Source of the DNA: Chloroflexota bacterium
GTDB lineage: Bacteria; Chloroflexota; Limnocylindria; Limnocylindrales; CSP1-4
Reading direction: 5' to 3'
Length of the DNA: 64,000 bases
Assembly (NCBI GenBank): GCA_005883615.1
Contig: VBEC01000014.1
Location: 48,497-112,496, forward strand
Positions 13,182 through 53,121 of this stretch are shown here, one piece after another. The notes under the pieces were generated by a model that saw nothing but the letters and a program-made list of their open reading frames with translations, was not told the DNA's origin and did no database searches. A program made the translations under genes and the position numbers. Within the stretch, counting starts at the first letter, position 1, and the number at the start of each line of letters is the position of its first letter.

Positions 13182-13427
13182 CGGATGGAGTCTACGCGGC
13201 TGCCGGTCGCCGCACGACCGTAGCGCGGGCCCCATGCTTCGAACCACGTAGATGTGTACCGGAAGTACCAGGTGGCATAGGACCTGAGGGCTATCGATAG
13301 TCGCGGGGGGGAATCCGACAGTTGGCCCCTCAGCAACCGGATCGAAAGGTTCGGCCGGGTACAAGAAAGCCCTAGAAATCGACGGTCCGCGAGAGCGGTA
13401 CTGGGAGATAGGACAGGAACGTGAGCC

Positions 13428-13796: not shown

Positions 13797-13982
13797 CTCA
13801 GACCCGCGGTCACCAATTGAATATCCAGCCTGCAGCGGCGTATCCCTAGCTACCCGCCACTGCAGTCAACCTACGAAGCGGCGCCGTACCTCCTCCCGGC
13901 GCCGCTTCGCTTTACCCATTCGTGGCACCCGATCCCGGCGGAGTCCCGGCACGAGGACCTAAGCGCCCGTACCATCCATCCC

Positions 13983-30678: not shown

Positions 30679-30766
30679 ATCGAATCGGAGCGACGGAGCA
30701 CGACTCGCCCATCGATTCGAGCCGCCCGGCCGGGACCGCTCGCCTTTTGCAGGCGTTCCGATCCGG

Positions 30767-32686
30767 ATGGTAGATTCGACGTGTCGGCCGCGCCGATCCT
30801 CCCCAATTCCTGCCCGTCAGACGACCCCAGAGAGGCTCGACCCGCTCGTGGCGCTCGACCCCTACCAGGAATTCCTCGTCCAGCCCGTCGACGCGTCCTG
30901 GCTCCAGTGCAACATTGAGTGCCAGGAAGCCTGCCCGGTCGGCACCAATTGCCGGGGCTACCTCAACCTCGCCGCCGAGGGCCGCTTCGAGGAGGGCTAC
31001 ATCCTCTCGCGCGAGCCCAACCCCGTGGCGGCGATGTGCTCCTACGTCTGCTCGGCTCCGTGCGAGCGCGCCTGCCGGCGGGGTGACATCGACCGGCCCC
31101 TGGCCATCCGCGCGATGAAGCGCTTCCTCGTGGAATGGCACGAGGCGTCCGGAATCCCCGACGTGATGCCCCAGATCACCCCACGCGAGGAGCGTGTCGC
31201 CGTCGTCGGTGCAGGACCAGCCGGTCTGTCGGTCGCTCGCGAGCTGGCCATGAAGGGCATACGAGTCACGGTTTTCGACAGCCTGCCCTACGGCGGTGGC
31301 ACGATGCTGATCGGGGTGCCCGCGTTCCGTCTCCCGCGGGAGGCGATCGAGATGGACGTCCGCCTGATCGAGCGCCTCGGCGTGACTTTCGTCTACAACA
31401 CGACGATCGGCGTGGACATCACCTTCGATCAGCTCCAGCGCGACTTCGATGCGGTCGCGATCACGGCGGGCGCGATGAACCCGGTCATCCTCGACGTCCC
31501 CGGCCACGAGCTCGACGGGGTGCAGTACGGCGTCGACTTCATGAAGATCGCCAACCTCGGCGAGCAGCTCACCGTGGGCAACGACGTGGTCGTGATCGGC
31601 GGTGGCTACACGGCCATGGACTGCTCGCGCACGAGCCTCCGTCACGGTGCGGAAAACGTCGCGATCGTCTACCGGCGCACGCGCTCGGAACTCGTCGTCG
31701 ACGAAGAGGAGCTTGGCGAGACCGAGCGCGAGGGCGTTCGGATGGAGTTCCTGGCCAGCCCGGTCGAGGTGCTCGGGGAGGACGGTCACGTCACGGGCGT
31801 CAGGTTCATCCGCAACAAGCTGGGCGAGCCAGATGCATCGGGCCGCCGCTCACCGATCCCCATCCCCGGCTCGGAGTTCATGATCAAGGCCGACAGCGTG
31901 ATCCCCGCTGTGTCCCAGGCGGCGGATCTGACGTTCCTGCCCGTCGAGGCGAATTTCGAGATCGGCCGCGGTCGCGTGCGCGTCGACCCGGCGACCTACG
32001 CGAGCAACGTGCGGGGTGTGTTCGCATGCGGCGACTTCGTGACCGGTCCGACCACCCTCATCGAGGCTGCCGGCCATGGCAAGAAGTGCGCCTATGCAAT
32101 CGATCGCTACCTTGCCGCACAGGGCGACGTGACAGTGGACGCGAACGTCAAGATCACCAGCTCGTGGCGCCATGACATGCCCGAGATGTACGACGTCCTG
32201 CCTCGCCAGCACATCCCCATGGCCCCGCTCGCCGCGCGCATGGCCTCGACAGACCCCGAGGTGAACTTCACGACACCCGTCGAGCTCGGCTACGACGCCA
32301 CTCAGGCCGTCGCCGAGTCGACCCGCTGTCTCATGTGCAACTTCAACATCTGGTTCGACCCCTTCCGCTGCGTGTTGTGCGGCGCGTGCGCCGACGTCTG
32401 TCCCGAAGGCGTCATCCATATGGTCGACGTCAACCAGCTCAAGACCGAGGGCCTGCTGCCCGAAATCGAGGAGGCGTACGGCTGGGAAAACGGGGCGGCC
32501 ATGATCCTCGACGAGGAGCGCTGCATCCGCTGCGCGTTGTGCGTCAAGCGTTGCCCGTTCGACGCCATTACGATGGAGCGGTTCGAGCTGCAGGAGGTCT
32601 CGACTGACGGCCGGCTCTACAAGGAGTCGTACCGTGATGCGCAACTCGCCGGCACGCCCGGCGTGGCAGGAGGAGCCGTTCGGTGA
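30767..32686 (+). CDS. GltD-like FAD/NAD(P)H-dependent oxidoreductase fused to a C-terminal 2x[4Fe-4S] ferredoxin domain
   Basis: N-terminal Cys cluster (CNIECQEACPVGTNC ... CSYVCSAPCERAC). FAD GxGxxG VAVVGAGPAGL and NAD(P) GxGxxA VVVIGGGYTAMD. C-terminal CLMCN ... CVLCGACADVCP and CIRCALCVKRCP. Start uncertain (ATG 30767 or GTG 30848). Its stop overlaps the GTG start of cytochrome b6 (GTGA). Confidence 0.75.
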   Translation: MVDSTCRPRRSSPIPARQTTPERLDPLVALDPYQEFLVQPVDASWLQCNIECQEACPVGTNCRGYLNLAAEGRFEEGYILSREPNPVAAMCSYVCSAPCERACRRGDIDRPLAIRAMKRFLVEWHEASGIPDVMPQITPREERVAVVGAGPAGLSVARELAMKGIRVTVFDSLPYGGGTMLIGVPAFRLPREAIEMDVRLIERLGVTFVYNTTIGVDITFDQLQRDFDAVAITAGAMNPVILDVPGHELDGVQYGVDFMKIANLGEQLTVGNDVVVIGGGYTAMDCSRTSLRHGAENVAIVYRRTRSELVVDEEELGETEREGVRMEFLASPVEVLGEDGHVTGVRFIRNKLGEPDASGRRSPIPIPGSEFMIKADSVIPAVSQAADLTFLPVEANFEIGRGRVRVDPATYASNVRGVFACGDFVTGPTTLIEAAGHGKKCAYAIDRYLAAQGDVTVDANVKITSSWRHDMPEMYDVLPRQHIPMAPLAARMASTDPEVNFTTPVELGYDATQAVAESTRCLMCNFNIWFDPFRCVLCGACADVCPEGVIHMVDVNQLKTEGLLPEIEEAYGWENGAAMILDEERCIRCALCVKRCPFDAITMERFELQEVSTDGRLYKESYRDAQLAGTPGVAGGAVR

Positions 32687-33411
32687 GTTTCCTCGAGCGG
32701 GTGGACAACGCCATCCGCCGAAGCTCCGCTTGGCGCTCGCTGTTCCGTCAGCCGTACCCCTCGGACGAGCGTTCCCGGGCGTATGCGGTGATGAACAACG
32801 TCTTCCTGCATATCCATCCCGTCCGGGTGCGGCAGCACGCGGTGAAATTCGCCTACACCTTCTGCCTCGGCGGGCTGTCGTTCTTCCTGTTCCTGGTGCT
32901 GACGGTGACCGGCGTCTACCTGATGTTCTTCTACATCCCGTCGACGACCCAGGCGTACAGCAACATCCTGGACATCCAGGCACATCAGCCCTTCGGCCTG
33001 CTCACGCGAAACGTCCATCGTTGGGCCGCGCACCTGATGGTGTTCTTCGTCTTCCTGCACATGATGCGTGTCTTCTACCACGGTGCCTACAAGCCGCCAC
33101 GCGAGTTCAACTGGGTCGTTGGGATCATCCTTCTCTTCACGACCATCTTGCTGAGCTTCACGGGCTACCTGCTGCCGTGGGACCAGATCGCCTACTGGGC
33201 GATCACCATCGGCACGAACTTCGCCACCTACGTGCCTGTCTTCAACACCCCGACCCAGATCCTGTTGCTCGGTGGCCTGGAGGTTGGCCAGAACACGCTC
33301 CTGCGGTTCTACGTGCTCCACATCATGGTCCTGCCCCTGGTCGCGGCGATCTTCCTGGCGGTCCACTTCTGGCGAATTAGAAAGGACGGGGGCATTAGCG
33401 GACCGCTATGA
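32683..33411 (+). CDS. petB: Cytochrome b6 (b6f-type, N-terminal haem-binding half of cytochrome b)
   Basis: Four TM helices with conserved His pairs (HIHPV, HRWAAHLMVFFVFLHMMRV, HIMVLP). 242 aa, the typical split-b length. Confidence 0.9.
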   Translation: MSFLERVDNAIRRSSAWRSLFRQPYPSDERSRAYAVMNNVFLHIHPVRVRQHAVKFAYTFCLGGLSFFLFLVLTVTGVYLMFFYIPSTTQAYSNILDIQAHQPFGLLTRNVHRWAAHLMVFFVFLHMMRVFYHGAYKPPREFNWVVGIILLFTTILLSFTGYLLPWDQIAYWAITIGTNFATYVPVFNTPTQILLLGGLEVGQNTLLRFYVLHIMVLPLVAAIFLAVHFWRIRKDGGISGPL

Positions 33412-33545
33412 CAGCCATCTGCCGCGTTGCCGCCGCCGCTCCTTACTCATGCAAACCTCGGGCCGATGGCTTCGCGGAGCTCAGCCTCGGACCTCGGTGG
33501 GCGAACGCCAGCTCGCCATTGAGGGTGCTTACTCGTGATTGATCG

Positions 33546-34148
33546 ATGACTGATACCAAGAAGCCGTCCGAGCGGCGCGTCGTGCTGCCCGTCGATCCGT
33601 CGCGGCGAACGGAGATCGACAAGCAGCGCGTGCCGATGTCGGCGCGGCCGTACCGGCTCCTGGCGCTGGTCAAGCAGGACGCCGTCGTCCGCGTCCAGAA
33701 AGAGCCGGACGACACCGTGATGACCTGGCCGCATCTCCTGTCGATCGAGTTTCTGGCCGCCGGCATGATGAGCATCTTCGTGCTGCTCTTGGGGCTGTTC
33801 GTCAACGCGCCCCTGGAAGCGCTGGCAAACGGCAACTTGACACCGGCGGTGGCCAAGGCACCGTGGTACTTCCTCGGCCTCCAGGAGCTCCTGGCGTACG
33901 TCCACCCAACCGTTGCGGGCGTTTTGACGCCCACGTTTGTATTCGTTGGCGGAATCCTGCTCCCCTACGTCGACCGCGAAAATATCGATGAGCATCGGCC
34001 GTCGAATCGCAAGACTGCGGTCATGCTCTTCACCCTGCTGCTCGGCATGGGCCTGGTCGTCACGTTCGTTGGCATCTTCTTCCGGGGCGCGGGGTACACC
34101 TTCGTGCTCCCGTACATCGACTCACCCGGCCTCCATTTCAACCTCTGA
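33546..34148 (+). CDS. petD: Cytochrome b6f complex subunit IV (cytochrome b C-terminal half)
   Basis: PEWY-like region (APWYFLGLQELLAYVHP) and 3 TM helices. Confidence 0.85.
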   Translation: MTDTKKPSERRVVLPVDPSRRTEIDKQRVPMSARPYRLLALVKQDAVVRVQKEPDDTVMTWPHLLSIEFLAAGMMSIFVLLLGLFVNAPLEALANGNLTPAVAKAPWYFLGLQELLAYVHPTVAGVLTPTFVFVGGILLPYVDRENIDEHRPSNRKTAVMLFTLLLGMGLVVTFVGIFFRGAGYTFVLPYIDSPGLHFNL

Positions 34149-34181
34149 CCGCAGTCCAACGGTCTCCCCGGAAGTTTCCTG

Positions 34182-34856
34182 ATGAGCAACTATCAAGTCG
34201 AGCCGGTCGACCAACCGAAGGCCCTGACGCGCGAAGCCATCAAGGCACTGCGCAACGAGCAGGTCCAGGGCCTGTCAAGACGTCAGATGCTGCGCCGGTC
34301 AGTGGGCGGCGCGGTCCTCCTGTGGCTCGGGGAGGTCAGCCTTGGTACGGTCGGCTTCCTGTGGCCGAACCTGAGCGGTGGATTCGGAGCGAAGGTCAAG
34401 ATCGGCACCTACAACGACATCAAGCTGGCCAACAGCAACCTGCCTATCAATGAGGGATTTCCGGCCTACTACCCGGAGGCGCGGGCATTCGTCATCCTGA
34501 TCGACCCCGCCCGCCAGGAGTTCATCCCCGGGACCGACACGACCGGCGACGGCCACCCGCTCAACGTGCGCGGCCTGTACCAGCGTTGCCCGCACCTGGG
34601 TTGCCGGCCGAACCCGTGCCTCAAGAACTTCTGGTTCGAGTGCCCCTGCCACGGGTCCCGCTACGACCGGCTCGGCATCAAGGCAGATGGTGCGCGCTTT
34701 GGCCCGGCGCCCCGGAGCATGGACCGATTCTCAGCCACGGTCGACAGCGGGGGCGTGCTGACGCTCGACACCGGCAAGATCACGAAGGGGCCACTGCCGG
34801 TCGCGCTCGGTCAGCCAGGATTGATCCCGCCCAAGTCTCCGACCGGGTGCATTTAG
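34182..34856 (+). CDS. petC: Rieske [2Fe-2S] iron-sulfur subunit
   Basis: Tat signal (SRRQMLRR) and Rieske boxes CPHLGC ... CPCHGS. Confidence 0.9.
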   Translation: MSNYQVEPVDQPKALTREAIKALRNEQVQGLSRRQMLRRSVGGAVLLWLGEVSLGTVGFLWPNLSGGFGAKVKIGTYNDIKLANSNLPINEGFPAYYPEARAFVILIDPARQEFIPGTDTTGDGHPLNVRGLYQRCPHLGCRPNPCLKNFWFECPCHGSRYDRLGIKADGARFGPAPRSMDRFSATVDSGGVLTLDTGKITKGPLPVALGQPGLIPPKSPTGCI

Positions 34857-34890
34857 TGCAGCGGACGGCCGACGTCACCCGAGGATCGGC

Positions 34891-35961
34891 ATGACCGACG
34901 AGTCCGGAGGCGGACCGGAGCAGCGTCTGCCCGTGCCCCGGCCGGAAGCGGTCCCGGCGCCGGCAGAGCGTTTCAGCGCGCCACCCTCGGCTCACGCATT
35001 CGAGCTGACACCGGAGCGGGCGGCGGGCATCGTCCGCCAGTCGGCCAGCGCTCGATCGGTCGGGCTCCTCGCCGTGCTCGTCGTGTCGCTCTTCGTGGCT
35101 ATTTACTACTTCTACGACCTCGGCGTTCCCGGCATCTCCGGCACCGCGCGTCTGGCCGCCGAGGCCAGCGCCCAGCAGGTGACAGCGGTCGAGAATGGCC
35201 ACAACATCTTCGAGGCCAACTGCGCGCGCTGCCACGGAGCCAATGGCGAAGGCGGGATCGGCCCGGTCCTCCACGATCAGACCAAGCTCTTCCAGCACCT
35301 GAACGCGACCTACATCGCGGCCGTCCTGCGCGAGGGGGGCCGGCTCGTGTGTGGCAATGCCAAGAGCCTGATGCCGGTCTGGTCGAATGAAGGCAACCCA
35401 CCGGGGCCACTCAACTACATCGAGATCCAGGACCTGATCGCATTCATTCGAGCCCCGCAGACGCAGACCTTCCTGGTTCGGGACCCGACCACCAATGAAC
35501 CCGTCAAGGACGCCACCGGCAAGGACGAAACCTTCAACGGCTGGCTGGATCCGAACTACAAGCCGGCCGCGGATGCCACCCCGTTCCCGGACTGCTGGCA
35601 GGATGCCTTCAAGAGCAGCAGTTCACCGTCCGCTTCGGGATCTCCGTCAGCCTCGGCCACGGCTGCAGCGTCGTCCGGGGGGACCACCCTCAAGGAGACC
35701 GCCCAAGGCGTGGCTTTCCAGCAGACAGAGCTGACCGCGCCGGCCGGCCAGGGCTTCGTGATCCAGTTCACCAACAACGATGCCGGGACGTCGCACAACA
35801 TCGAGATCAAGAGCCCCGATGGGTCGGACGCGTTCAAGGGCGAGATCTTCGCGGGCCCCGGCGAGCGGACCTACAACGTGCCGCCCCTCGCGGCCGGGAC
35901 ATACCCGTTCATGTGCACCGTGCATCCGACCACGATGACCGGCACCCTCACGGTCAAGTGA
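34891..35961 (+). CDS. Membrane-anchored monoheme cytochrome c fused to a C-terminal type-1 copper cupredoxin domain
   Basis: N-terminal TM, CxxCH (CARCHGANGEGG), Ala/Ser linker, then cupredoxin ligands H (SHNIEI), C and H (FMCTVHP) and M (TTMTG). Confidence 0.8.
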   Translation: MTDESGGGPEQRLPVPRPEAVPAPAERFSAPPSAHAFELTPERAAGIVRQSASARSVGLLAVLVVSLFVAIYYFYDLGVPGISGTARLAAEASAQQVTAVENGHNIFEANCARCHGANGEGGIGPVLHDQTKLFQHLNATYIAAVLREGGRLVCGNAKSLMPVWSNEGNPPGPLNYIEIQDLIAFIRAPQTQTFLVRDPTTNEPVKDATGKDETFNGWLDPNYKPAADATPFPDCWQDAFKSSSSPSASGSPSASATAAASSGGTTLKETAQGVAFQQTELTAPAGQGFVIQFTNNDAGTSHNIEIKSPDGSDAFKGEIFAGPGERTYNVPPLAAGTYPFMCTVHPTTMTGTLTVK

Positions 35962-36007
35962 GCACACGTCCGGCGCGCGGACGCGTTTGGCGACAGGTGG
36001 GAGGACG

Positions 36008-37477
36008 ATGACGGAGGCGCTCGGTCCGGGACACAGGCAGCGGGGTCGACCGGTCTTCGGCCTGCTCGACGCCGACGGCTGGGGCTGGGCATTCCTCAAA
36101 GCCTTCTTCTGGTTCATCGTGATCCTGTTCCTTCTGGGCTATCTACCCGACCGCGCGTACTACTTCACGGTCAATCCCACCATCGACCTCGGGATCAACG
36201 CCGTTTCGCCGGTGAACTTCTGCCCGCCCGAGAACGCTGGCCTCCCCTGTCCCGCCCCGCCCGGAGGGGTCCTGCCGTGGCAGTCCTCCCCGGCCCAGCT
36301 GAAGCTGCCCGAGGCACGCCGCGACGGAGCGGCGGTGCAGGTCGGCACCAACCTGCTGTACATCGGCGGCAGCGACGGCAAGGCCCCCAGCGCGAAGGTC
36401 TACGTGACGGACCTGTTCGGCGACGGCAACTATGCGCCGTGGCGCGCGGGGCCGGACCTGCCCGAACCGCGCACCAAGGCCGCCGCCGTCTTCTTCAGCG
36501 GCTCGATCTTCGTCGCCGGCGGCGACGACGCGTCGGGCAAGCCGACCACCACCATGTGGATCCTGACGCCAGACGCCCAGACCGGCAGCCTCGGAACCTG
36601 GAAGCCCGCCGCCGACACGACCGGCAAGAACGACCCGAAACTCGACCTGAAGCTGCTGGAGGCCCGCGACGGAGCCTCGCTGGCGGCGGCGGCGGACGGA
36701 TTGTTCCTGGTCGGCGGTCGTAACGCCTCGGGCCCCGTCAATACGGTCTGGAAGTCGACCATCGACACGAAAGGTGTCCTCCACGCCTGGCAGCCAACCA
36801 CCGCGGGAACCATGCCCGGCACTCGCGCGGACGGCCTGGCCTTCCTTAACGGGAACTTCCTGTACGTGTACGGCGGCGTGGACGGCGGCTCTCCCACCAC
36901 CGCGGTCTGGGTTGCCCAGGTCGGCAAGGACAAGGACGGCGCGAGCCAGCTGACCGCGTGGGCCAGCAACATCCAGTCCTTGCCGGCGGCGCGCACGAAC
37001 GCCTCGGGTTTCGTGGCCAACCAGGCTATCTACCTGGTCGGCGGCTCGGACGGCAGCAAGGCACATACCGAGCTCTACTGGGCGATCCCGAGCAGCAACG
37101 GGGCGATCACGGAGTGGAAGCATCTATCGAACTCCGATCTGCCCGCCGGCGGTCTCCTCGGGTCGGCGGCCGCGGTCAGCGGCAGTCACGCCTTCCTGAT
37201 CGGGGGCCAGTCGGGGAACGGCCTGACCGGCTCGACGCTGCGCACGAACCTGGCACCAAAGCCGCCCTTCTTCCAGCTCGGCCTCGTGGGTGCGACGGTG
37301 CCCGGGCTCAAGATCGAGGGCGACATCGGGCCGCAGCTGGGGCTCCTCGCGGCCGCCGGCGTGGGCACGGGCAACTTCGTCATCCTGCTGCTGATCGCCT
37401 ACCTGTTCGCACACAAGGCACAGGTTCGGGCGTGGTTCTACCGAATGCGAGAGCGTCGCCGCGCGCGAGAAACCTGA
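36008..37477 (+). CDS. Kelch-repeat (beta-propeller) membrane protein
   Basis: GGAGG RBS before the ATG at 36008. N-terminal TM, 5-6 Kelch-like repeats (LYIGGSDG, IFVAGGDD, LFLVGGRN, LYVYGGVDG, IYLVGGSDG, AFLIGGQSG) and a C-terminal TM. Located 47 nt after the cyt c-cupredoxin gene. Confidence 0.7.
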   Translation: MTEALGPGHRQRGRPVFGLLDADGWGWAFLKAFFWFIVILFLLGYLPDRAYYFTVNPTIDLGINAVSPVNFCPPENAGLPCPAPPGGVLPWQSSPAQLKLPEARRDGAAVQVGTNLLYIGGSDGKAPSAKVYVTDLFGDGNYAPWRAGPDLPEPRTKAAAVFFSGSIFVAGGDDASGKPTTTMWILTPDAQTGSLGTWKPAADTTGKNDPKLDLKLLEARDGASLAAAADGLFLVGGRNASGPVNTVWKSTIDTKGVLHAWQPTTAGTMPGTRADGLAFLNGNFLYVYGGVDGGSPTTAVWVAQVGKDKDGASQLTAWASNIQSLPAARTNASGFVANQAIYLVGGSDGSKAHTELYWAIPSSNGAITEWKHLSNSDLPAGGLLGSAAAVSGSHAFLIGGQSGNGLTGSTLRTNLAPKPPFFQLGLVGATVPGLKIEGDIGPQLGLLAAAGVGTGNFVILLLIAYLFAHKAQVRAWFYRMRERRRARET

Positions 37478-37480
37478 CGG

Positions 37481-37858
37481 TTAGCGGGCGGGGAGCTTGC
37501 CCTCGTCCGGAGCCGGTTGCCCATGCCGAACGGGCAGGCCCGCCTTCTGCCAGGCGATGATGCCGCCGACGACATTGACGGCGTCGTAGCCGCTTCGCAC
37601 AAGGTGCCCGGTCGCGGCCAGGGAGCGACTGCCCGCCGCGCACATGACGAGCAACGGCCGGTCCCGTGGCAGCTCGGCGAAGCGTTCCGCGAATTCGGAC
37701 ATCGGCAGCAGGACCGCGTCAGGCACACGCACGTCTTCGAATTCGTCACGCTCGCGCACGTCGAGGAGTAGCGGCCCCCGGCCTTGCGTGCCGGCGGCGC
37801 GACGGGCATCGGCTTCGATGACGCCGATGGACGGTAGCGGCGCGGCTGCCGGGTTCAT
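37481..37858 (-). CDS. Rhodanese-domain sulfurtransferase
   Basis: LLLDVRERDEF ... CAAGSRS active-site Cys loop. ATGA overlap with the upstream DUF309 gene. Confidence 0.8.
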   Translation of the reverse strand: MNPAAAPLPSIGVIEADARRAAGTQGRGPLLLDVRERDEFEDVRVPDAVLLPMSEFAERFAELPRDRPLLVMCAAGSRSLAATGHLVRSGYDAVNVVGGIIAWQKAGLPVRHGQPAPDEGKLPAR

Positions 37859-44864: not shown

Positions 44865-45617
44865 CTATTCCCAGCGGAACGTGAGGATGGCGAGAGCGGA
44901 GGCTCCGATCGCCCAGACGGCCAGGAGCACGAGTGGTGGCGTGAAGTCGCCGGCCGAGCTCCCGAGGGCGATCCGCAACAGATCCGAGAGCGCGCTCGCC
45001 GGCAGCAGCCTGGCAACCGCAGCCACTGCGGCCGGAAGCTGGTCGAGCGGGACGACGATGCCGCCGAGCAGCAGCAGCGCCAGGAACAGGCCGTTGGCGC
45101 CGGCGAGCGTGGCCTCCGCTCTCAGGGACCCGGCCATGGCCAGCCCGATTCCCGCGAACGCCAGCGTCCCGAGGAGCAACCCGACGACGACGAGCGCTGT
45201 GCCGGAGCCAGCCGGCGGTCGCCATCCGAGGAACGCCAGCGCCACCGCGAAGAGCACGGCGAACTGAACGATCTCGACGACCAGGACGGCGAGCATCTTC
45301 GCGCCGATCAGGCCGGCTCGTGGAAGCGGCGAGCCGCCGAGGAGCTTCAACACCCCGTAGTAGCGTTCATAGGCCGTTGCGATTCCGAGGTTGACGAGCG
45401 ACGTCGAGATGACGGCCAGCGCCAGGACGCCGGGCAACAGGAAGTCGACAGGCCGACCGGCCGTTACCGGCACGATTGACGTCGAGGCGAAGAACAGCAG
45501 CACCACGACGGGCAGGACGATGATGACGAGCACGTTTTCGCCACGACGTGCCGTCAAGCGCAGCTCCATGCCCGTCTGGGCGAGAGTCGATCGCCAGGCC
45601 GTTGCGGGAGCGCTCAC
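44865..45617 (-). CDS. ABC-2 type transporter permease
   Basis: Six TM helices. Downstream of and overlapping the DrrA-like ATPase gene. Confidence 0.8.
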   Translation of the reverse strand: MSAPATAWRSTLAQTGMELRLTARRGENVLVIIVLPVVVLLFFASTSIVPVTAGRPVDFLLPGVLALAVISTSLVNLGIATAYERYYGVLKLLGGSPLPRAGLIGAKMLAVLVVEIVQFAVLFAVALAFLGWRPPAGSGTALVVVGLLLGTLAFAGIGLAMAGSLRAEATLAGANGLFLALLLLGGIVVPLDQLPAAVAAVARLLPASALSDLLRIALGSSAGDFTPPLVLLAVWAIGASALAILTFRWE

Positions 45618-46585
45618 GCGTCTGCCTCCCCGCGCGGCGCGCCGGGCTCGCCTTCTGCGCCCGCAACGAGCTCCAGGTAGCGCTCCTCCAGCGACCCGCG
45701 GCCCGTCGTCAGCTCCGCAATGAGAAGTCCGCGCTCCGCACTCCAGCGCGCAAGCCTGGCGAGCACGTCCGGCTCCGCCGTGACTCCGTCGAGCCGGTAG
45801 CGGCCTCCTCCCTCATCGGTCAGACTGCCTGGTGCGCCATCGAGCAGTGTGCCGCTCAGTTCCTCTCGGTCGGCGACCTCGAGGGGATGAGGCAATCGGA
45901 AACGCAGCCGGGGGGATGCCGAGGAGGCGAGCTCGTCAGGGGATCCAGCGGCGACCAGCCGGCCGTGGTCGATCAGGGCGACGTGGTCGGCCAATCGTTC
46001 GACATCGGCGAGGTCGTGTGTCGTCAACAGGATCGCGACGCCGGTCCCGCGCAGCTCGGCGATGAGGGTCCGGGTCGCGGCACGGCCTTCGGGATCCATG
46101 CCCGCGGTCGGCTCGTCCAGGATCAGGACCTCTGGATCGCCCACCAAGGCGACCGCCAGAGCCAGCCGCTGCTTCTCGCCCCCCGAAAGGCGGCGGTAAG
46201 GCGTTCGAGCGCTGGTCCGCAACCCAACGAGATCGATCAGCTTCTGCGGGCCTCGCCCGCCGGCGTGGAAGTTCGCATACAGCCGCAGGATTTCATCGGG
46301 CCGTGCCTGTGGATAGATGCCGCCGCCGCCCTGGAGCATCAGGCCGACCCGGGCCTTCAGGTTCCGGCCGCCTGTCCCTGGGTCCGTGCCCAGCACGCGG
46401 ACCGAGCCTCCATCGGCGGTTCGGTAACCCTCCACGATCTCGACCGTGGTCGTCTTTCCGGCGCCATTCGGACCCAGGAGCGTGAACACCTCGCCGCGCG
46501 ACACGCTGAAGGTCAGGCCATCGACCACCGGTCGAGCTCCGTATCGCTTGGTGAGGTCGTCGACGACGATTGCCGGGTCGGTCAC
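45614..46585 (-). CDS. ABC transporter ATP-binding protein (DrrA/ABC-2 exporter type)
   Basis: Walker A GPNGAGKTT, LSGGEKQRLALAVAL, Walker B ILDEPTAGMD. Confidence 0.9.
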   Translation of the reverse strand: MTDPAIVVDDLTKRYGARPVVDGLTFSVSRGEVFTLLGPNGAGKTTTVEIVEGYRTADGGSVRVLGTDPGTGGRNLKARVGLMLQGGGGIYPQARPDEILRLYANFHAGGRGPQKLIDLVGLRTSARTPYRRLSGGEKQRLALAVALVGDPEVLILDEPTAGMDPEGRAATRTLIAELRGTGVAILLTTHDLADVERLADHVALIDHGRLVAAGSPDELASSASPRLRFRLPHPLEVADREELSGTLLDGAPGSLTDEGGGRYRLDGVTAEPDVLARLARWSAERGLLIAELTTGRGSLEERYLELVAGAEGEPGAPRGEADA

Positions 46586-47049
46586 CGCAGGATGGCGGCG
46601 AGCTGGCGGTCGAGATCGGCCGCGGTCAGCTCGCCGATCTGGCGCGATAGGATGACGCCCTTCCGATCGATGAAGTAGGACTGCGGCGGCGCGACGGCCT
46701 GATACGTTGCCTTGGCCGAACCGTCCGGATCCGGAAGGCTGGGCCAGCTGGCGCTGTGGTTCATCATGAAGTCACGGGCCGGTCCCGGGCTGTCGTTCCA
46801 GAGGACGCCCACGATCTCGAGGCCCTCGGCCTGGTGGTCGGCGTTGTACCGCTCGAGGAGCAACGGGAACTCCCGGGTGCACGGCACGCACCATGAGGCC
46901 CAGAAGTTCACCAGGACTGGGTGCCCTCGCAGGCTCGAAAGGCTCACCGCCCTGCCATCGATCGCAGTGCCGGCCAGCTCAGGGGCCAGCTGGCCGACCG
47001 TAGCAACCGGCTTGCTCGTGGCGCAGCCCCCGACGGCAGACAGGAGCAA
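46582..47049 (-). CDS. TlpA/ResA-family thiol-disulfide oxidoreductase (redoxin)
   Basis: WASWCVPC thioredoxin motif. Annotated TTG start. The in-frame upstream sequence encodes a lipoprotein-like signal (RLLAAALLLSAVGGC) with no canonical start codon, so the true start is uncertain. Confidence 0.75.
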   Translation of the reverse strand: MLLSAVGGCATSKPVATVGQLAPELAGTAIDGRAVSLSSLRGHPVLVNFWASWCVPCTREFPLLLERYNADHQAEGLEIVGVLWNDSPGPARDFMMNHSASWPSLPDPDGSAKATYQAVAPPQSYFIDRKGVILSRQIGELTAADLDRQLAAILR

Positions 47050-47110: not shown

Positions 47111-48202
47111 CTACTTGATCGTCAGTGTCCCCGTCATCGTCGGGTGGACGGAGCAGGTGAAGGGATACGCGCCCGCGGCGAGCGCGGGGACGTTGTAGAC
47201 GGTCGAAATGGGGCCGGTCACGATCTCGCCCTTGAACACATCCTTGCCGGAAGCGTCCTTGATGTCCACGTTGTGCATGGTGGCCTGGTCTTTGTTCTGG
47301 AAGGCGATCGTGAACGGCTTGCCGGCGGGACCGGCCACATCGGGCGTGGTGAACTGGGTTGCTTCGGCAACGATCGAGACATCGCCCTTTGGCGCCGGGG
47401 CGTTCGACGGAGCCGAACCCCCCGATCCACTACCCGGGCCGGCCGCAGCGCCGGGAGCCGGCGAGCCGGCCGCGGCGGTCGTGGAGGTCTTGGGCGGCAG
47501 CACCCCCGACTGGATGACGACTGCGGCGCCTACAAGGATCACGAAGAGCGCGAGCGTGCCCATCGGGAAGGCCGGCGCCGGCGGTGGCGGCTGATGCCCC
47601 CTCCGATCGGCCTCCTCTACCAGCCGATATTCGTGCCGCGCGTCGCGCAGCCAGCCGAGCAGCGAGATGGCGAGCGTGACGATCCCGACGAGCAGCAGCG
47701 CCGGCCCGAACACAAGCCCGAAGAAGATGATCGCCAGGGCGATCGAAGCAAGGATCGGCTGGAATGATGGCACCGGGGCGTGGACACCCGGTGGCGGCTC
47801 CTCGCGCACGACCACGAGCGCGGTGTCCCGCCCCAGGAGGTGGTCGTGCTCGCGCATCGCCTCGCGGCCCCAGTACAGCAACGCCAGGGCCATCCCGATC
47901 GCGGCCAGGGGAATGGCCATGCCACCCGCCACCAGAGCGAACAGGACGAGGAAGGTCGCGATCGCACCAAAGAACGGAGCAAACGACGGCACCGGTGGGT
48001 GAACGCCGGGCGGCGGGGCCGGCGTAAGGCGGGTGCGGCCGCGTCGCCGCGGACCTACGCGAGTGAACGACCAGCCCAGCCACAGTATGTAAAGGACGAC
48101 CAGGCCCAGGATGGCCAAGGGCAGCAGTGCGATCAGCGAGCCCCAGTCGGGGGTGATGATCTGCGAGAGGATGTTGAGGATCTGGTCCCAGACGGCCTGC
48201 AT
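47111..48202 (-). CDS. Polytopic membrane protein with internal tandem duplication and C-terminal type-1 copper cupredoxin domain
   Basis: Two repeats of a 2-TM unit containing PPGVH(P/A)PVPSF. Ala/Pro/Gly linker. Cupredoxin ligands H (TMHNVDI), C and H (FTCSVHP) and M (TMTG). Its C-terminus is paralogous to the tails at 35961 and 50672. Confidence 0.7.
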   Translation of the reverse strand: MQAVWDQILNILSQIITPDWGSLIALLPLAILGLVVLYILWLGWSFTRVGPRRRGRTRLTPAPPPGVHPPVPSFAPFFGAIATFLVLFALVAGGMAIPLAAIGMALALLYWGREAMREHDHLLGRDTALVVVREEPPPGVHAPVPSFQPILASIALAIIFFGLVFGPALLLVGIVTLAISLLGWLRDARHEYRLVEEADRRGHQPPPPAPAFPMGTLALFVILVGAAVVIQSGVLPPKTSTTAAAGSPAPGAAAGPGSGSGGSAPSNAPAPKGDVSIVAEATQFTTPDVAGPAGKPFTIAFQNKDQATMHNVDIKDASGKDVFKGEIVTGPISTVYNVPALAAGAYPFTCSVHPTMTGTLTIK

Positions 48203-48214
48203 CGGGCGGCTCGG

Positions 48215-48409
48215 TCAGTCCCGGGGCGAGCCGGAGATCAGGACGTAGGCCATCAGACCCATCGCGATGCCCAGCGCACCGAGCATCGTCACCCCGGCGT
48301 AGTCAAGCTGCCACTTGCCGAAGTAGGGGACGGCCCAATAGATCACGCCGATGACGACGAAGATCACTCCCACGAGGAAGGCGTTCCGAGGATGGCGCAG
48401 CGGATGCAT
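48215..48409 (-). CDS. Putative small cytochrome c oxidase subunit IV-like membrane protein
   Basis: 64 aa with two TM helices, directly downstream of ctaE. Start at the internal ATG (MHPLRHP) chosen to avoid overlapping ctaE. Confidence 0.35.
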   Translation of the reverse strand: MHPLRHPRNAFLVGVIFVVIGVIYWAVPYFGKWQLDYAGVTMLGALGIAMGLMAYVLISGSPRD

Positions 48410-48420
48410 GACGCCGCCCG

Positions 48421-49044
48421 CTACAGGATGTAGAGGGTCGAGAAGAGGGCAACCCACACCACGTCGACGAAGTGCCAGTACAGGGAGGTTGCTTCGACGG
48501 CATCGTGGTGGCGGGCGGTGAACTGCCCGGCCAGCGCCCGGTAGAGGATCACGCTGAGCATGATCGTGCCGCCCAGGACGTGGGCGCCGTGGAAGCCGGT
48601 CAGCGTGAAGAACGTGGTCCCGAAGGTGCCGTCGGTCAGCCCGAAGCCGAGCTGGCTGTAGTCATACGCCTGGCCGAGCAGGAAGGCGATCCCCAGCACG
48701 AGCGTGACCGCAATGCCGCGCACTAGTCCGCGCCGGTCGTCGCGGCGGATGGCCCAGATGCCGAGCTGGCACGTGAACGAGCTGGTGACAAGGATGACCG
48801 TGAGGATGGCGGCCTTCCAGGGGTCTTCATGGAGGTTGAAGTGCGGGTTGTCCGCCGGCGGCCACGGGCGCGTCGACGCGCGGACCGTGAAGTAGGCGCC
48901 AAAGAGCCCGGCGAAGAACATGACCTCGCTGGTGATGAACAGCAGCATCCCGAGGACGGGGTTGCTGATTCCACCGCGCTGGTCGTGCGCCAGCCCGGCG
49001 ACGAGGCTGTGCTCGGTGGTGAGTGCGTGAGAGTCGGCTGTCAC
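48421..49044 (-). CDS. ctaE: Cytochrome c oxidase subunit III
   Basis: Five TM helices with conserved GFHGAHV and YWHFVDVVW motifs. Confidence 0.9.
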   Translation of the reverse strand: MTADSHALTTEHSLVAGLAHDQRGGISNPVLGMLLFITSEVMFFAGLFGAYFTVRASTRPWPPADNPHFNLHEDPWKAAILTVILVTSSFTCQLGIWAIRRDDRRGLVRGIAVTLVLGIAFLLGQAYDYSQLGFGLTDGTFGTTFFTLTGFHGAHVLGGTIMLSVILYRALAGQFTARHHDAVEATSLYWHFVDVVWVALFSTLYIL

Positions 49045-50663
49045 GCGTGGTTACCGGCACGACCGTGACGCAAGTCGAACAGCGGACGCTCGGAGCGGAT
49101 CTCAGGAAGATGGTCGAAGTTGTAGGGCGGCGGCGGGGAGCTCGTGGCCCATTCGAGGGTGTTGGCCTCCCACGGATCGTCGCCCGCCGGCTCGCCGTTG
49201 CGGAGCGAGATCATCACGTTCCACAGGAACGGCAGCATGCTCGTGGCAATCGTGAAGCCGCCGATCGTCGCCAGCAGGTTCAGCTCGCTCCAGCCGGCGG
49301 CTGCGCTGTAGTCGGCCACCCGCCGGGGCATGCCCATCAGTCCCAGCATGTGCATCGGGAAGAAGGTCAGGTTGAAGCCCACGAACATGAGCACGAAATG
49401 GATCTTGCCCAGGGTTTCGTCGAGCAGCCGGCCGGTCATCTTGGGGAACCAGTAGTACAGGCCGGCGAACATTCCGAACACCGACCCGCCGAAGAGCACG
49501 TAGTGGAGATGGGCGACCACCCAGTACGTGTCATGCAGGGCGAAATCCACGGGAACGGCCGCGCTGAAGGCGCCGTTGATGCCCCCGATCAGGAACATGG
49601 TCAGGAAGCCCAACGCGAACAGCATCGGCGTGCTGAAGATCAGCTGGCCTCGGAACAGCGTCGCGACCCAGTTGAACATCTTGACGCCCGTCGGCACCGC
49701 GATGAGGAACGTCATCAGTGAGAAGAACGGCAGGAACACCGAACCCGTCGTGAACATGTGGTGGGCCCACACGGAGAAGCCCAGGGCACCGATGCCCGCG
49801 GTGGCGAACACGAACGCCTTGTACCCGAACAGTGGCTTGCGCGAGAACACGGGCAGGATCTCGCTGACCATACCCATCGCGGGCAGGACCATGACGTACA
49901 CCGCGGGGTGCGAGTAGAACCAGAACACGTTCTGCCAGAGGATGGCGTTGCCGCCGGTGGCCGGATCGAAGAAGTGGCCGCCGTAGTTGCGGTCGATGAA
50001 CAGCATGATCAAGGCGCTGGTGAACACGGGCGTGGCCATCAGCACGAGCACACTCGTGACGAGGACTGTCCAGACGAGGATCGGCAGCCGGAACATGGTC
50101 AGTCCCGGAGCGCGCATCTTGAAGATGGTGGTCAGGAAGTTGACCGCCCCCAGGATGGAACTCGTCCCGATGAGGATCAGGCCCACTGCCCAGAGGTCGG
50201 TGCCCGTGCCGGAATAGGCGCGTTGGGCCAGCGGGCTGTAGCCCGTCCAGCCCTCGGCCGCCGCGCCGCCCGTGAAGAAGCCGGTGAACATCAGGATGCC
50301 GCCCAACGGCAGCATCCAGAAGGACAGCGCATTGATGCGCGGGAAGGCCATGTCCGGGGCGCCGATCTGGAGGGGGACGACGTAGTTTGCGAAGCCGGCC
50401 AGGATGGGGATGATGAACAGGAAGATCATCACAGTCCCGTGCATCGTGAACAGCTGGTTGTAGACGTCCGGGGCGAAGAACTGGATCTTCGGCTGAGCGA
50501 GTTCGGCGCGCACGCCGAGCGCCAGGAGCCCCGCCAGGAAGAAGAACAGCAACGAGTTGACGACGTACAGGATGCCGATCTTCTTGTGGTCGGTCGTCGT
50601 GATCCACTCGTACAGCCCGCTCCGGTAGGCGGGGACGGCGGGGTGTAGCGCAGTCGTCGCCAT
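49041..50663 (-). CDS. ctaD: Cytochrome c oxidase subunit I (haem-copper oxidase, aa3 type)
   Basis: TTDHKKIG, the full set of haem a / CuB His ligands (WAHHMF, HHMFT etc.) and a GGAG RBS 8 nt before the ATG at 50663. The track ORF N-extension to 50720 was rejected. Confidence 0.95.
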   Translation of the reverse strand: MATTALHPAVPAYRSGLYEWITTTDHKKIGILYVVNSLLFFFLAGLLALGVRAELAQPKIQFFAPDVYNQLFTMHGTVMIFLFIIPILAGFANYVVPLQIGAPDMAFPRINALSFWMLPLGGILMFTGFFTGGAAAEGWTGYSPLAQRAYSGTGTDLWAVGLILIGTSSILGAVNFLTTIFKMRAPGLTMFRLPILVWTVLVTSVLVLMATPVFTSALIMLFIDRNYGGHFFDPATGGNAILWQNVFWFYSHPAVYVMVLPAMGMVSEILPVFSRKPLFGYKAFVFATAGIGALGFSVWAHHMFTTGSVFLPFFSLMTFLIAVPTGVKMFNWVATLFRGQLIFSTPMLFALGFLTMFLIGGINGAFSAAVPVDFALHDTYWVVAHLHYVLFGGSVFGMFAGLYYWFPKMTGRLLDETLGKIHFVLMFVGFNLTFFPMHMLGLMGMPRRVADYSAAAGWSELNLLATIGGFTIATSMLPFLWNVMISLRNGEPAGDDPWEANTLEWATSSPPPPYNFDHLPEIRSERPLFDLRHGRAGNHA

Positions 50664-50671
50664 GCTGCTCC

Positions 50672-51820
50672 TTACCTGACGGTCAGCGTTCCGATCATGG
50701 TCGTGGGATGCACCTTGCAAACGAAGCTGTATTTGCCGGCAGGCAGGGGATTGACCGCGTAAAGCCGCGAGTCGGGACCGGTGATGACCTCACCGTCGAA
50801 GACCACCGCGCCGGTCGGCGAGTCCTTGTGGATGTCGACGTTGTGCTGGGTCGCCTGGTCGGCGTTGGTGAATTTGATGTCGAAGGGCTGGTTGGCGGGT
50901 GCCTCGAGGCTGTCCTTGTCGAAGGCCACGTTCTTGGCGGTCAGATCGAGCGTGACCTGAGCGCTCGGCGGCCCGCTCGCGGTGACCGAGCTGGCGCCCG
51001 GCGAGCCACTCGGCGATGGCGCGCCGCTGGCCGCCGGTGCGGGCGTGGCCTTCGCCTGCGTGATCTGCTGCTGAAGCCAGGCGTCGAATTCCGTCGGCGT
51101 CTTGGCCTGCACCTCGAACGACATGCCCTGGTGACCGATCCCGCACAGCTCCGCGCATTGGCCACGGAAGGTCTGGCCGGCGTCGGTCGCGTCGACCATG
51201 AAGTCGAACGTGTTCTCCTTGCCCGGAACCACGTCGCGCTTGAACAGGAATTGAGGGACGTAGAAGGCATGGATCACGTCGGGGCTGTGCAGCGACAGGT
51301 GAACGGTCTGGCCGGCCGGGACGACCATCGTGCCGGGCAACGAGACCGCCTTGCCGTCGGGACCCCTGATCAGGGACTGCCCATCCGGGCCGAGGTACTG
51401 GAAGCTCCAATCGAACCGCCGTGCGATCGCCACCACGTGGACCTGTGGGTTGGGCGAGGTGGCCTCGACGGTGTTGAGCGTCTGCCATGAGATGACGAAT
51501 AGGTAGGCGACGATGACCGTCGGGATGATCGTCCAGATGATCTCGATCAGGTTGTTCCCGTGGATCTGCGGCGGCAGCTCCGTGTCGGTGGGGTGCCGTC
51601 GATAGCGGATGACCGCATAGACGATAAGGCCCTCGACGACGAAGAAGATCGCCGCGGCGATCAGGAACACGATGTCGTACAGGTTCCTGATGTCGTGGCC
51701 CTGCGCCGTGGCCGCCTTGGGCGGATAGAAGCTGTCGATCACGGAGCAACCTGTGACGGCGGCGGCGACGCCCGCGAGCGCGAGCACCCGCGCGAGGCGC
51801 GTCGGCGTCGTCCGGAACAT
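50672..51820 (-). CDS. ctaC: Cytochrome c oxidase subunit II (CuA) with extra C-terminal cupredoxin (type-1 Cu) domain
   Basis: Lipoprotein signal (AAAVTGCS), two TM helices, CuA site H ... CAELCGIGHQGM, then Ala/Ser/Pro linker and a cupredoxin with H (TQHNVDI), C and H (FVCKVHP) and M (TTMIG). Confidence 0.9.
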   Translation of the reverse strand: MFRTTPTRLARVLALAGVAAAVTGCSVIDSFYPPKAATAQGHDIRNLYDIVFLIAAAIFFVVEGLIVYAVIRYRRHPTDTELPPQIHGNNLIEIIWTIIPTVIVAYLFVISWQTLNTVEATSPNPQVHVVAIARRFDWSFQYLGPDGQSLIRGPDGKAVSLPGTMVVPAGQTVHLSLHSPDVIHAFYVPQFLFKRDVVPGKENTFDFMVDATDAGQTFRGQCAELCGIGHQGMSFEVQAKTPTEFDAWLQQQITQAKATPAPAASGAPSPSGSPGASSVTASGPPSAQVTLDLTAKNVAFDKDSLEAPANQPFDIKFTNADQATQHNVDIHKDSPTGAVVFDGEVITGPDSRLYAVNPLPAGKYSFVCKVHPTTMIGTLTVR

Positions 51821-52005
51821 CGGCAAGGGTGTCTCCGAAGTCGATCGGTCAGCGGTCGCGGTCAGCGCCCGGGACGAGACGCGACCGGCGGAGTCGGCAA
51901 CGTGGCCCGACCTCGGCCGGACCGCTCCAATCATACCCGCAGACTTCGGGCATGTGTCGGGTGCCGGCCGGCCGCCCGAGGGTGCCGATCGTCATTCGGG
52001 GCACA

Positions 52006-53121
52006 ATGCAGCCCATGGTGCCGAGGAGGACGGCGAGGGGCCACACGGCTGGCTCCGGCGTGTTCGGATCGAGCCTGATCGCCTCGTCGGGTGCCGCGGC
52101 GCTCCTCGGACTGACCTGGTTGGCCGTTGCCAGTCCCGTCCTCGCTCACGCGGGCCAGATTGCCCCAGAACCCAGCTATCCGCAGGTGCTCCTGGCCTGG
52201 TCGTTCGACCCGACCATTCAGGTGCCGCTCTTGCTGGCCGCGCTCGGCTGGATCTGGGCGGTTCGGCGGGTCGACCGGTTCCACCCGGCGAGCCCTGTCC
52301 CGTTCGCACGAACGGTCGCCTTCCTGGGGGGCCTAGCAGTCATCGAGGTGGCCCTCCAATCGCCGATCGCGCTGTACGACGACACCCTCTTCGCCGCGCA
52401 CATGGTCCAGCACGTGATGCTGACCCTGTTCGCCCCGCCACTGATCGCGCTCGGAGGGCCGGTGACGCTGCTCCTGCGAGTTGCCCGGCCGGACCTCCGG
52501 CGGCGCCTCATCCTGCCGGTCCTCCACTCGCGGGTCTTCCGCGCCGTGAGCCACCCGGTGGTGGCATGGGTCCTGTTCGCGGGCACGATGTGGGCTACCC
52601 ATTTCTCGCCAATCTTCGAGCAGGCCCTGCAGGACGACCTCGTTCACGATCTCGAACACGTCGCCTACCTCGTGACGGGGATGCTCTTCTGGTGGCCCGC
52701 AGTCGGCCTCGATCCGAGCCCATGGCGGATTCCGCACCCGTTGCGCGTGCTGTATGTCTTCCTGCAGATGCCCCAGAACACGTTCCTGGCACTCGCGATC
52801 TACAGCGCCTCCGCGCCGCTCTATCCGACCTACGCCAACATGCAGCGCGGCTGGGGGCCCAGCCCCCTGGCGGACCAGCAGCTGGCGGGAGGGCTGATGT
52901 GGGTCATCGGCGACCTCACGTTCCTCGTTGGGATCCTCGCCCTCGTCGTCGCCTGGATGCGCGCGGATGAGCGTGCCGGCGCACGACACGACGCGCGCCT
53001 CGACGCCGAACGTGCGGAGATCCATGCGCGCGAGCTGCGGCTGGCTGAGCGATTGGCCCGCGAGTCCCCGAGCGGATGGCGTGGCGGAGGTCCCCCTCCA
53101 ACCTCGGAGCACAAGAAGTGA
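52006..53121 (+). CDS. ctaG: Cytochrome c oxidase assembly factor CtaG (Caa3_CtaG family)
   Basis: Polytopic membrane protein with HMVQHVML and LFWWP motifs. Divergent from ctaC. Confidence 0.75.
   Translation: MQPMVPRRTARGHTAGSGVFGSSLIASSGAAALLGLTWLAVASPVLAHAGQIAPEPSYPQVLLAWSFDPTIQVPLLLAALGWIWAVRRVDRFHPASPVPFARTVAFLGGLAVIEVALQSPIALYDDTLFAAHMVQHVMLTLFAPPLIALGGPVTLLLRVARPDLRRRLILPVLHSRVFRAVSHPVVAWVLFAGTMWATHFSPIFEQALQDDLVHDLEHVAYLVTGMLFWWPAVGLDPSPWRIPHPLRVLYVFLQMPQNTFLALAIYSASAPLYPTYANMQRGWGPSPLADQQLAGGLMWVIGDLTFLVGILALVVAWMRADERAGARHDARLDAERAEIHARELRLAERLARESPSGWRGGGPPPTSEHKK

Follow-up and report, generated by a model that had tools for sequence, protein, structure and literature searches.

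The stretch of DNA analysed here, which we call the window, comprises 64,000 nucleotides of contig VBEC01000014.1 from an uncultured soil bacterium of the class Limnocylindria, phylum Chloroflexota, and its central feature is ctaC, a gene for subunit II of a haem-copper oxidase whose product ends in an additional type-1 (blue) copper domain. An initial annotation had placed such a fusion at 50672-51820, and an exact minus-strand gene indeed occupies this interval, with the COX2_TM, COX2 and Cupredoxin_1 domains all matched in its product. Absent from that annotation were two paralogues of the cupredoxin domain, a second at 47111-48202 and a third at 34891-35961, and the complex III operon at 32.7-36.0 kb to which the third belongs; beyond these three, no further copies of the domain were found in the window. 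The interest of the locus lies mainly in this three-fold arrangement of tethered copper domains. The sequence is known from metagenome assemblies, and we read the architecture from genes and predicted structures. The ctaC gene is organized as follows.

50672-51820, minus strand: ctaC, haem-copper oxidase subunit II fused to a type-1 cupredoxin, 382 residues plus stop (open reading frame, gene call, Pfam and TIGR02866)
51485-51721, minus strand: COX2_TM region, residues 34-112 (PF02790, E 1.3e-15; helices in the AlphaFold2 model)
51050-51463, minus strand: CuA cupredoxin domain, residues 120-257 (PF00116; ligands H184, C222, E224, C226, H230 and M233)
50960-51049, minus strand: Ala/Ser/Pro-rich flexible linker of about 30 residues, 258-287 (predicted local distance difference test score, pLDDT, <50 at residues 264-285)
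50675-50959, minus strand: type-1 (blue) copper domain, residues 288-382 (PF13473; ligands H326, C368, H371 and M375)

CtaC combines the two features of a haem-copper oxidase subunit II, a COX2_TM anchor and the H...CxExCx3Hx2M ligand set. Its longest open reading frame is 50672-51934, and the product in public assemblies starts at 51820 with MFRTTP. Residues 1-25 resemble a lipoprotein signal, ending in AVTGC (a lipobox read from the sequence), and AlphaFold2 places helices at residues 7-31, 39-72 and 90-117. The matches to PF02790 and PF00116 (the latter over residues 163-238, E 7.3e-14) both exceed their Pfam gathering cutoffs; against the curated cutoffs of the NCBIfam models, the CoxB equivalog TIGR02866 is passed (171.2 versus 147.7), whereas the top-scoring model, NF050117 for the CtaC of actinobacterial aa3 oxidases, stays below its threshold (198.9 bits versus 250). 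The CuA signature CAELCGIGHQGM is intact, reading C222-A-E-L-C226-G-I-G-H230-Q-G-M233, as is H184. Among scored candidates, 4,308 CtaC relatives have E <1e-5; homologue counts given here and below refer, for each protein family, to the best 120 database relatives listed, which for CtaC span 53-100% identity. The CuA pattern is matched in 119 of these 120, and every CuA ligand is invariant in the 39 homologues (53-85% identity) of the CtaC alignment. A single-chain AlphaFold2 model built on that alignment has a mean pLDDT of 82.8 and a predicted template modelling score (pTM) of 0.60, and the folds closest to the N-terminal 250 residues come from the CtaC of mycobacteria and subunit II of the Thermus caa3 oxidase (2yev_B).

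The fusion itself is recovered repeatedly. At least 24 contigs, assembled independently from several samples and up to 147 kb long, encode an identical 382-residue CtaC, and the precomputed architecture PF02790+PF00116+PF13473 occurs in all 120 listed relatives. The initial annotation had named the loss of the copper ligands or a missed stop as findings that would overturn it; neither is the case, given the identical contigs and the retention of the ligands in 120/120 homologues.

The C-terminal domain is recognized by Cupredoxin_1 (PF13473; residues 285-381, E 2.8e-15, 56.6 bits against a cutoff of 27) and is modelled as an eight-stranded beta-sandwich with pLDDT 93-98; its Greek-key topology is supported by PF13473, by the AlphaFold2 model and by fold and profile matches. 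The H/C/H/M ligands predicted to follow an Ala/Ser/Pro linker are indeed there: H326 lies in HNVDI, and C368, H371 and M375 lie in C368-K-V-H371-P-T-T-M375. All four are invariant in the 39 aligned homologues, and the C-x2-H-x2/3-M loop with an upstream His is present in 120 of 120. When a profile of the domain family was compared with all Protein Data Bank (PDB) sequences, amicyanin came first with a whole-domain match (E 5.8e-10), followed by auracyanin A, plastocyanins, pseudoazurin and azurin, and the family's PHNV and C-x-x-H-x-x-M columns aligned on the MPHNV and CTPHPFM segments of amicyanin. Of the domain searches proposed at the outset, those with COX2_TM, COX2 and Cupredoxin_1 were above cutoff and Copper-bind (PF00127, plastocyanin/azurin) fell just short, at 20.9 versus 21.2; PF00127 is a precomputed match in many CtaC homologues. 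By predicted fold and ligand set, the extra domain belongs with type-1 copper domains of the amicyanin/auracyanin kind. It does not qualify as an amicyanin orthologue: the amicyanin equivalog TIGR02657 does not match CtaC and scores far under its cutoff with the paralogue on the accessory subunit (20.6 versus 110.2). Family searches gave no match of the domain to PCuAC (PF04314) or Sco, and no protein of the window matched the sulfocyanin family PF06525. The type-1 sites would presumably be occupied by copper. Because residues 264-285 have pLDDT <50, we regard the preceding linker as flexible; it varies in both length and sequence among aligned homologues.

In a caa3-type oxidase, subunit II ends in a monohaem cytochrome c. 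CtaC lacks this domain: a motif scan of its reading frame found no CxxCH haem c motif, and no cytochrome c family matched. We compared CtaC tails across lineages in a species-level scan (one genome per species in the Genome Taxonomy Database, GTDB), which returned 80 loci, 15 of them from Limnocylindria. After the CuA motif, seven other lineages (Thermomicrobiales, Thermoflexales, Ardenticatenales, Dehalococcoidia, Gaiellales, Sericytochromatia and Bacillota) have tails of 104-202 residues with exactly one CxxCH, the caa3 type, and Thermoleophilia/Conexibacter and one Tepidiformaceae have tails of 31-44 residues, the plain aa3 type. The 15 Limnocylindria loci match CtaC over its full length, cupredoxin domain included. 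The cupredoxin thus sits at the position of the caa3 haem domain, and the claim that it stands there instead of a cytochrome c holds.

The fusion is common in Limnocylindria metagenomes and widespread in sequence space. About 22 clusters at 50% identity match it over its full length (34-59% identity), several of them confirmed by Pfam. The view of the initial annotation that this is an uncommon architecture is thus borne out among characterised oxidases but not in metagenomes, where it occurs in thousands of sequences.

Several database entries extend or complicate this distribution. A metagenome-assembled genome labelled 'uncultured Frankiaceae' (L020) has a CtaC tail of about 130 residues with a type-1 loop and without CxxCH; this CtaC-cupredoxin fusion (38% identity, CQVHPQM loop) and a 409-residue protein that has two CtaF-like modules (LHLPGPSWMP) but lacks a cupredoxin lie at 9905-11038 and 13265-14494 of that locus. 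Either this contig is mis-binned or such a fusion also occurs in lineages other than Limnocylindria. A complete Limnocylindria-type oxidase operon is labelled 'Patescibacteria group bacterium' (L012, DATNFQ010000138.1), and a homologue of the 363-residue protein described below is labelled 'Verrucomicrobiae bacterium' (P0197); both labels are probably binning or labelling errors in public records. The same cupredoxin subfamily also forms poly-cupredoxin proteins, in which 3, 4 and 5 tandem domains were seen (P0401, P0445 and P0472), and a CtaC-like protein of 499 residues (P0386) has two Copper-bind stretches after COX2. The poly-cupredoxin proteins are possible copper counterparts of multihaem cytochromes.

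The second cupredoxin belongs to the oxidase operon itself, whose other genes are the following.

51952-53121, plus strand: ctaG, divergent assembly factor of the Caa3_CtaG type (PF09678, E 1.9e-77; divergent in 15/15 loci)
49041-50663, minus strand: ctaD, subunit I, 540 residues (PF00115, E 2.6e-161; TIGR02891 above cutoff)
48421-49044, minus strand: ctaE, short subunit III, 207 residues (PF00510)
48215-48409, minus strand: 64-residue two-helix protein, probable small oxidase subunit (gene call; in 15/15 Limnocylindria loci)
47111-48202, minus strand: 363-residue six-helix protein with cupredoxin (PF13473, E 6.8e-11; helices in the AlphaFold2 model)
46582-47049, minus strand: TlpA/ResA-like membrane-side thioredoxin (PF00578/PF08534; NF002854, ResA-like, below cutoff)

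The order ctaC-ctaD-ctaE followed by a 64-residue gene had been recognized correctly, as had the divergent Caa3-type ctaG (PF09678, E 1.9e-77), but the operon does not end there: the gene for the 363-residue cupredoxin subunit comes next. Across Limnocylindria the arrangement is divergent ctaG, then ctaC-cupredoxin, ctaD, ctaE, the 64-residue gene, the CtaF-like cupredoxin gene, the thioredoxin and an ABC transporter, and it is kept in 15 loci, although the contig of one of them (L005) ends past the cupredoxin subunit. The second cupredoxin gene accordingly lies within the cta operon in all 15 species-level loci, and the thioredoxin gene in 14 of 15, the contig of the fifteenth ending earlier. 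The 64-residue protein matched no Pfam or NCBIfam family. In CtaD, the translation shows FWFYSHPAVYVMV (YSHPAVY) where GHPEVY would stand; YSHPxV in helix VI replaces the glutamate of GHPEV, which we take to mark CtaD as the subunit I of an A2-type haem-copper oxidase. The top-scoring models of CtaC, CtaD and CtaE are those of actinobacterial aa3 oxidases, with all of these actinobacterial NCBIfam models under cutoff. No Sco or PCuAC is annotated within 10 kb of the cta operon. An ABC transporter (ATPase and ABC-2 permease, 44865-46528, minus strand) follows the oxidase genes in 14 of 15 loci; together, the thioredoxin and this transporter may keep the cysteines of the CuA and type-1 sites reduced or serve maturation.

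The cupredoxin of the 363-residue protein occupies its C-terminal 93 residues (271-363), with ligands H310, C350, H353 and M356 that are invariant in 36 homologues, and it shares 48% identity with that of CtaC (E 2e-28). A type-1 loop is present in 119 of the 120 listed homologues, the sole exception being a truncated or chimeric entry. AlphaFold2 models the protein as six helices and a beta-sandwich. The membrane part contains two PPPGVHxPxPSFxP repeats, each followed by a helical hairpin, and then one more helix and a linker. Its score against PF12270 (actinobacterial CtaF) is 18.1 bits, under the cutoff of 26.9; PF12270 is precomputed in most listed homologues, many of which carry PF12270+PF13473. 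A fold search returned only cupredoxin matches among its top 50 (auracyanins 6kol and 2aan of Roseiflexus and Chloroflexus, amicyanin 1id2 and plastocyanin), with none drawn by the membrane part. The repeat does weakly match the N-terminal hairpin of COX3, both in Rhodobacter (1m56_C, residues 10-65, E 3.6e-4) and, by hhalign, in an approximate sequence of bovine COX3 (E 4.2e-3); in that pairing, GVHPPVPSFAP...YWGREAMRE aligns with AYHMVNPSPWP...QWWRDVIRE. The short CtaE covers only positions 78-255 of the 258 in the PF00510 profile and is without the N-terminal two-helix hairpin. The 363-residue protein therefore appears to supply, in duplicate, the subunit III hairpin that CtaE is without, and because CtaE is without exactly the hairpin that the repeat matches, we take the protein to be a membrane-integral subunit of the oxidase to which a second cupredoxin is anchored, a reading that is suggestive, not firm.

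The third cupredoxin belongs to complex III. The region at 34-36 kb stood out when the window was scanned for motifs, and a complex III operon lies at 32683-35961 on the plus strand, about 11 kb from the oxidase operon.

32683-33411, plus strand: cytochrome b6-type subunit of a split cytochrome b (PF00033, E 2.7e-45)
33546-34148, plus strand: subunit IV, the C-terminal part of cytochrome b (PF00032, E 1.6e-6)
34182-34856, plus strand: Rieske iron-sulfur subunit (PF00355, E 4.3e-6; CPHLGC and CPCHGS read from the sequence)
34891-35961, plus strand: membrane-anchored monohaem cytochrome c with cupredoxin, 356 residues (PF00034/PF13442, PF13473 and PF00127)

A split cytochrome b, a Rieske protein and a c-type cytochrome on consecutive genes constitute a complex III of the b6c/b6f type, and the operon is the same in two relatives (L085 and L086) at 58-64% identity. 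The 356-residue protein consists of an N-terminal helix, a cytochrome c domain (CARCH, about 35185-35451), a Ser/Ala-rich linker and a C-terminal cupredoxin (about 35677-35958; C342, H345 and M349). It scores 29.4 bits against PF00127, above the cutoff of 21.2, and its cupredoxin is 54% identical to that of CtaC. Exactly one CxxCH is found in 120 of the 120 listed homologues and a type-1 loop in 119, the only one without it being a truncated or chimeric entry.

The three cupredoxins are set behind three different modules: that of CtaC follows the CuA domain, that of the 356-residue protein follows the haem c domain and that of the 363-residue protein comes after six helices that are oriented by Arg-rich loops facing the cytoplasm. 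Predictions and sequence together place all three outside the membrane, each on a linker of about 25-38 residues that is of low complexity, variable in length and predicted to be disordered. In a domain alignment of the three families (P0001-P0360), cupredoxin identity is 56-61% within families and 51-56% between them, and for no more than 110 of 120 domains does the nearest neighbour belong to the same family. Such near-equal identity suggests a shared constraint, for example mutual docking, or gene conversion.

We favour, with moderate confidence, the explanation that the window encodes an A2-type A-family oxidase whose subunit II bears a tethered type-1 copper domain, as part of a tethered relay from complex III. 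Electrons would pass from quinol to the Rieske centre and on to haem c of the complex III subunit, from there to the type-1 copper of the same subunit, then to a type-1 copper of the oxidase, on subunit II, the accessory subunit or both, and finally through CuA and haem a to the haem a3-CuB site. Every carrier would be membrane-tethered, with no diffusible carrier between complexes III and IV; the direction and order of these steps are those that the domain arrangement suggests. Electron entry from blue copper to CuA, as the initial annotation had proposed from CtaC alone, is made more plausible by the two further paralogous cupredoxins. Either swinging domains or a fixed III-IV supercomplex might effect the transfer under this explanation. 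Tethered carriers would also suit the lineage, because Limnocylindria are reported to be without outer-membrane synthesis genes (bioRxiv 10.1101/2021.08.23.457424) and a diffusible carrier would be lost from such cells. Carrier loss is answered by caa3 oxidases in Bacillota and by the dihaem QcrC in Actinobacteria (PMC9145763).

Several points weigh against the tethered relay. In none of the 15 other loci did the complex III operon turn up within 10 kb of ctaC, so the proposed link between the two operons draws on domain paralogy without conserved synteny. AlphaFold places the type-1 domain relative to CuA without confidence (pTM 0.60, disordered linker). Other donors, such as soluble or anchored cytochromes c or other cupredoxins, may be the real partners. 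Finally, three copper domains exceed a minimal relay, and any of them could reduce CuA. A stronger form of the proposal, in which the III-IV link of Limnocylindria consists wholly of tethered carriers and the three co-evolving cupredoxins exchange electrons mutually, seems to us possible but doubtful.

The absence of synteny between the complex III and oxidase operons in other genomes would also fit a different role, in which the type-1 domain of CtaC is an entry port for donors other than complex III, for example periplasmic-side dehydrogenases, or a branch point to other acceptors, and its likeness to the complex III cupredoxin is simply a matter of shared descent. Amicyanin, the closest solved relative, is itself a dedicated dehydrogenase acceptor (of methylamine dehydrogenase), and the occurrence of the subfamily in poly-cupredoxins with 3-5 tandem copies points to wider use. 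However, a paralogue placed behind the haem c of complex III is hard to explain unless it carries electrons onward, and no conserved dehydrogenase gene adjoins the cta operon; we judge this role unlikely.

A variant of the relay that differs in mechanism would make the three cupredoxins fixed parts of an obligate III-IV supercomplex, a rigid copper bridge comparable to the haems of QcrC. The best scores of CtaC, CtaD and CtaE against actinobacterial aa3 models, the match of the CtaC fold to chains of the mycobacterial supercomplex and the CtaF-like character of the accessory subunit all lean this way, and between-family identity (51-56%) close to within-family identity (56-61%) would be expected if the domains must fit one another. 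The long (about 25-38 residues), variable and disordered linkers favour mobility instead, and all actinobacterial NCBIfam models remain under cutoff. There is perhaps a small chance that the bridge is rigid in this way.

It is more improbable still that the CtaC cupredoxin is no electron carrier but a copper chaperone or store acting in cis to metallate CuA, CuB or both. The CuA chaperone PCuAC does use a cupredoxin-like fold (PMC9145763), and the surroundings of the operon, up to 10 kb away, include a TlpA/ResA-like thioredoxin and CtaG but no annotated Sco or PCuAC. Yet the PCuAC motif, H(M)X10MX21HXM, is free of Cys (PMC9145763), whereas the domain here has a Cys-containing type-1 set that aligns with amicyanin and matches neither the PCuAC nor the Sco family, and the same domain is fused to the cytochrome c of complex III, where no copper site needs assembly. 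We regard the remaining candidate, that the fusion arose through misassembly, a frameshift or faulty gene calling or that the domain is a decaying remnant, as almost certainly wrong and reject it: nothing beyond the metagenome source was found in its favour, the identical CtaC on at least 24 contigs excludes a missed stop or chimera, and the architecture and ligands are kept in 120/120 listed homologues of a domain modelled at pLDDT 93-98.

If the tethered relay is taken as the working explanation, several known systems bear comparison with it. Subunit I of the Thermus caa3 oxidase carries the YS motif and is of the A2 type, as is CtaD here. The caa3 oxidases of Thermus thermophilus (2YEV) and Bacillus subtilis (CtaC) are likewise A-family enzymes in which a C-terminal redox domain on the outer face of subunit II feeds CuA, and the Caa3_CtaG type of assembly factor is found with both kinds of oxidase. 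The CtaC of the B. subtilis caa3 oxidase is a lipoprotein (PMC9145763), as the signal on the Limnocylindria CtaC suggests for that protein. The tail of a caa3 subunit II is a monohaem cytochrome c, however, whereas here it is a type-1 copper cupredoxin without CxxCH.

Blue copper proteins also figure among the known systems. Auracyanins are membrane-tethered carriers within the same phylum. Those of Chloroflexus and Roseiflexus, and the amicyanin of Paracoccus, are the same kind of single-domain His/Cys/His/Met cupredoxin, but as separate proteins. In the SoxM supercomplex of Sulfolobus, sulfocyanin (SoxE) within a III/IV assembly passes electrons to the CuA subunit; that system is archaeal, and its copper protein is a separate subunit of an unrelated sequence family. 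In haloarchaea, halocyanin is the proposed donor of the ba3 oxidase of Natronomonas pharaonis, and halocyanin-subunit IIa fusions occur in Halobacterium and Haloarcula (PMC3128077). As here, a blue copper protein is thus the proposed oxidase donor and in some species is fused to a membrane subunit, and this fusion is the nearest precedent for blue copper tethered to an oxidase. The haloarchaeal enzymes belong to the archaeal B-family and carry the domain on a one-helix subunit IIa, whereas the Limnocylindria oxidase is a bacterial A-family enzyme fused at the C-terminus of subunit II, with a second cupredoxin fusion on an accessory subunit.

For a complex III subunit with tandem centres that feeds the oxidase without a free carrier, the closest parallel is the actinobacterial bcc-aa3 system (PMC9145763). 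It too operates in monoderm cells without a diffusible carrier, its complex III c-subunit has two centres (two haems there, a haem and a copper here) and its subunit IV, CtaF, has a possible, CtaF-like counterpart in the accessory subunit. Here, by contrast, cytochrome b comes as separate b6 and subunit IV proteins, as it does in Bacillota and cyanobacteria, copper domains take the place of the second haem and occur on the oxidase as well, and the oxidase motif is A2, not A1.

Full-text searches of the accessible literature turned up no account of a bacterial fusion between subunit II and a cupredoxin, or of a cytochrome c-cupredoxin subunit of complex III, either of which subscription-only reviews may mention. 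Papers on Limnocylindria mention just a "cytochrome c terminal oxidase" (bioRxiv 10.1101/2021.08.23.457424 among them), and the source annotations are limited to "cytochrome c oxidase subunit II", "plastocyanin" or "cupredoxin domain-containing protein", labels that hide the system. Were the relay to prove correct, the redox module of subunit II would be swappable, haem c for blue copper, inside one phylum, and a widespread soil and freshwater lineage would depend mainly on copper carriers for the terminal stages of aerobic respiration, with consequences for how much copper relative to iron abundant uncultured bacteria require. The relay matters also for how complexes III and IV are connected in cells without an outer membrane, where, in its stronger form, it would be a third monoderm answer beside the caa3 oxidases and anchored cytochromes of Bacillota and the dihaem QcrC of Actinobacteria. 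Copper-to-copper hops between homologous domains would then carry a respiratory current for the first time, and the poly-cupredoxins with 3-5 tandem copies would stand as copper counterparts of the multihaem cytochromes.

The genes that flank the complex III operon have features of their own. Upstream, at 30701-32686 on the plus strand, lies a GltD/SudA-like flavoprotein of about 611-660 residues with Fer4_20, Pyr_redox_2 and two 4Fe-4S motifs, the end of which overlaps the start of the cytochrome b6 gene (32683) by 4 nucleotides (GTGA); the overlap and the gene order are the same in L085 and L086. It is unusual for a Rieske/cytochrome b operon to be translationally coupled to an iron-sulfur flavoprotein of this cytoplasmic, NAD(P)H type. 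Immediately downstream, the gene for the cytochrome c and cupredoxin subunit is followed by that of a 496-residue Kelch-repeat beta-propeller protein (35987-37477, plus strand) with hydrophobic segments at both ends, whose gene keeps its position in the same two relatives and which may be a further protein associated with complex III or involved in assembly. Beyond it, from 37481-37858 (minus strand) to about 41 kb, are genes for a rhodanese, DUF309/DUF2203-type proteins, an aminotransferase and a 2-hydroxyacid dehydrogenase, in an order that is apparently that of L085.

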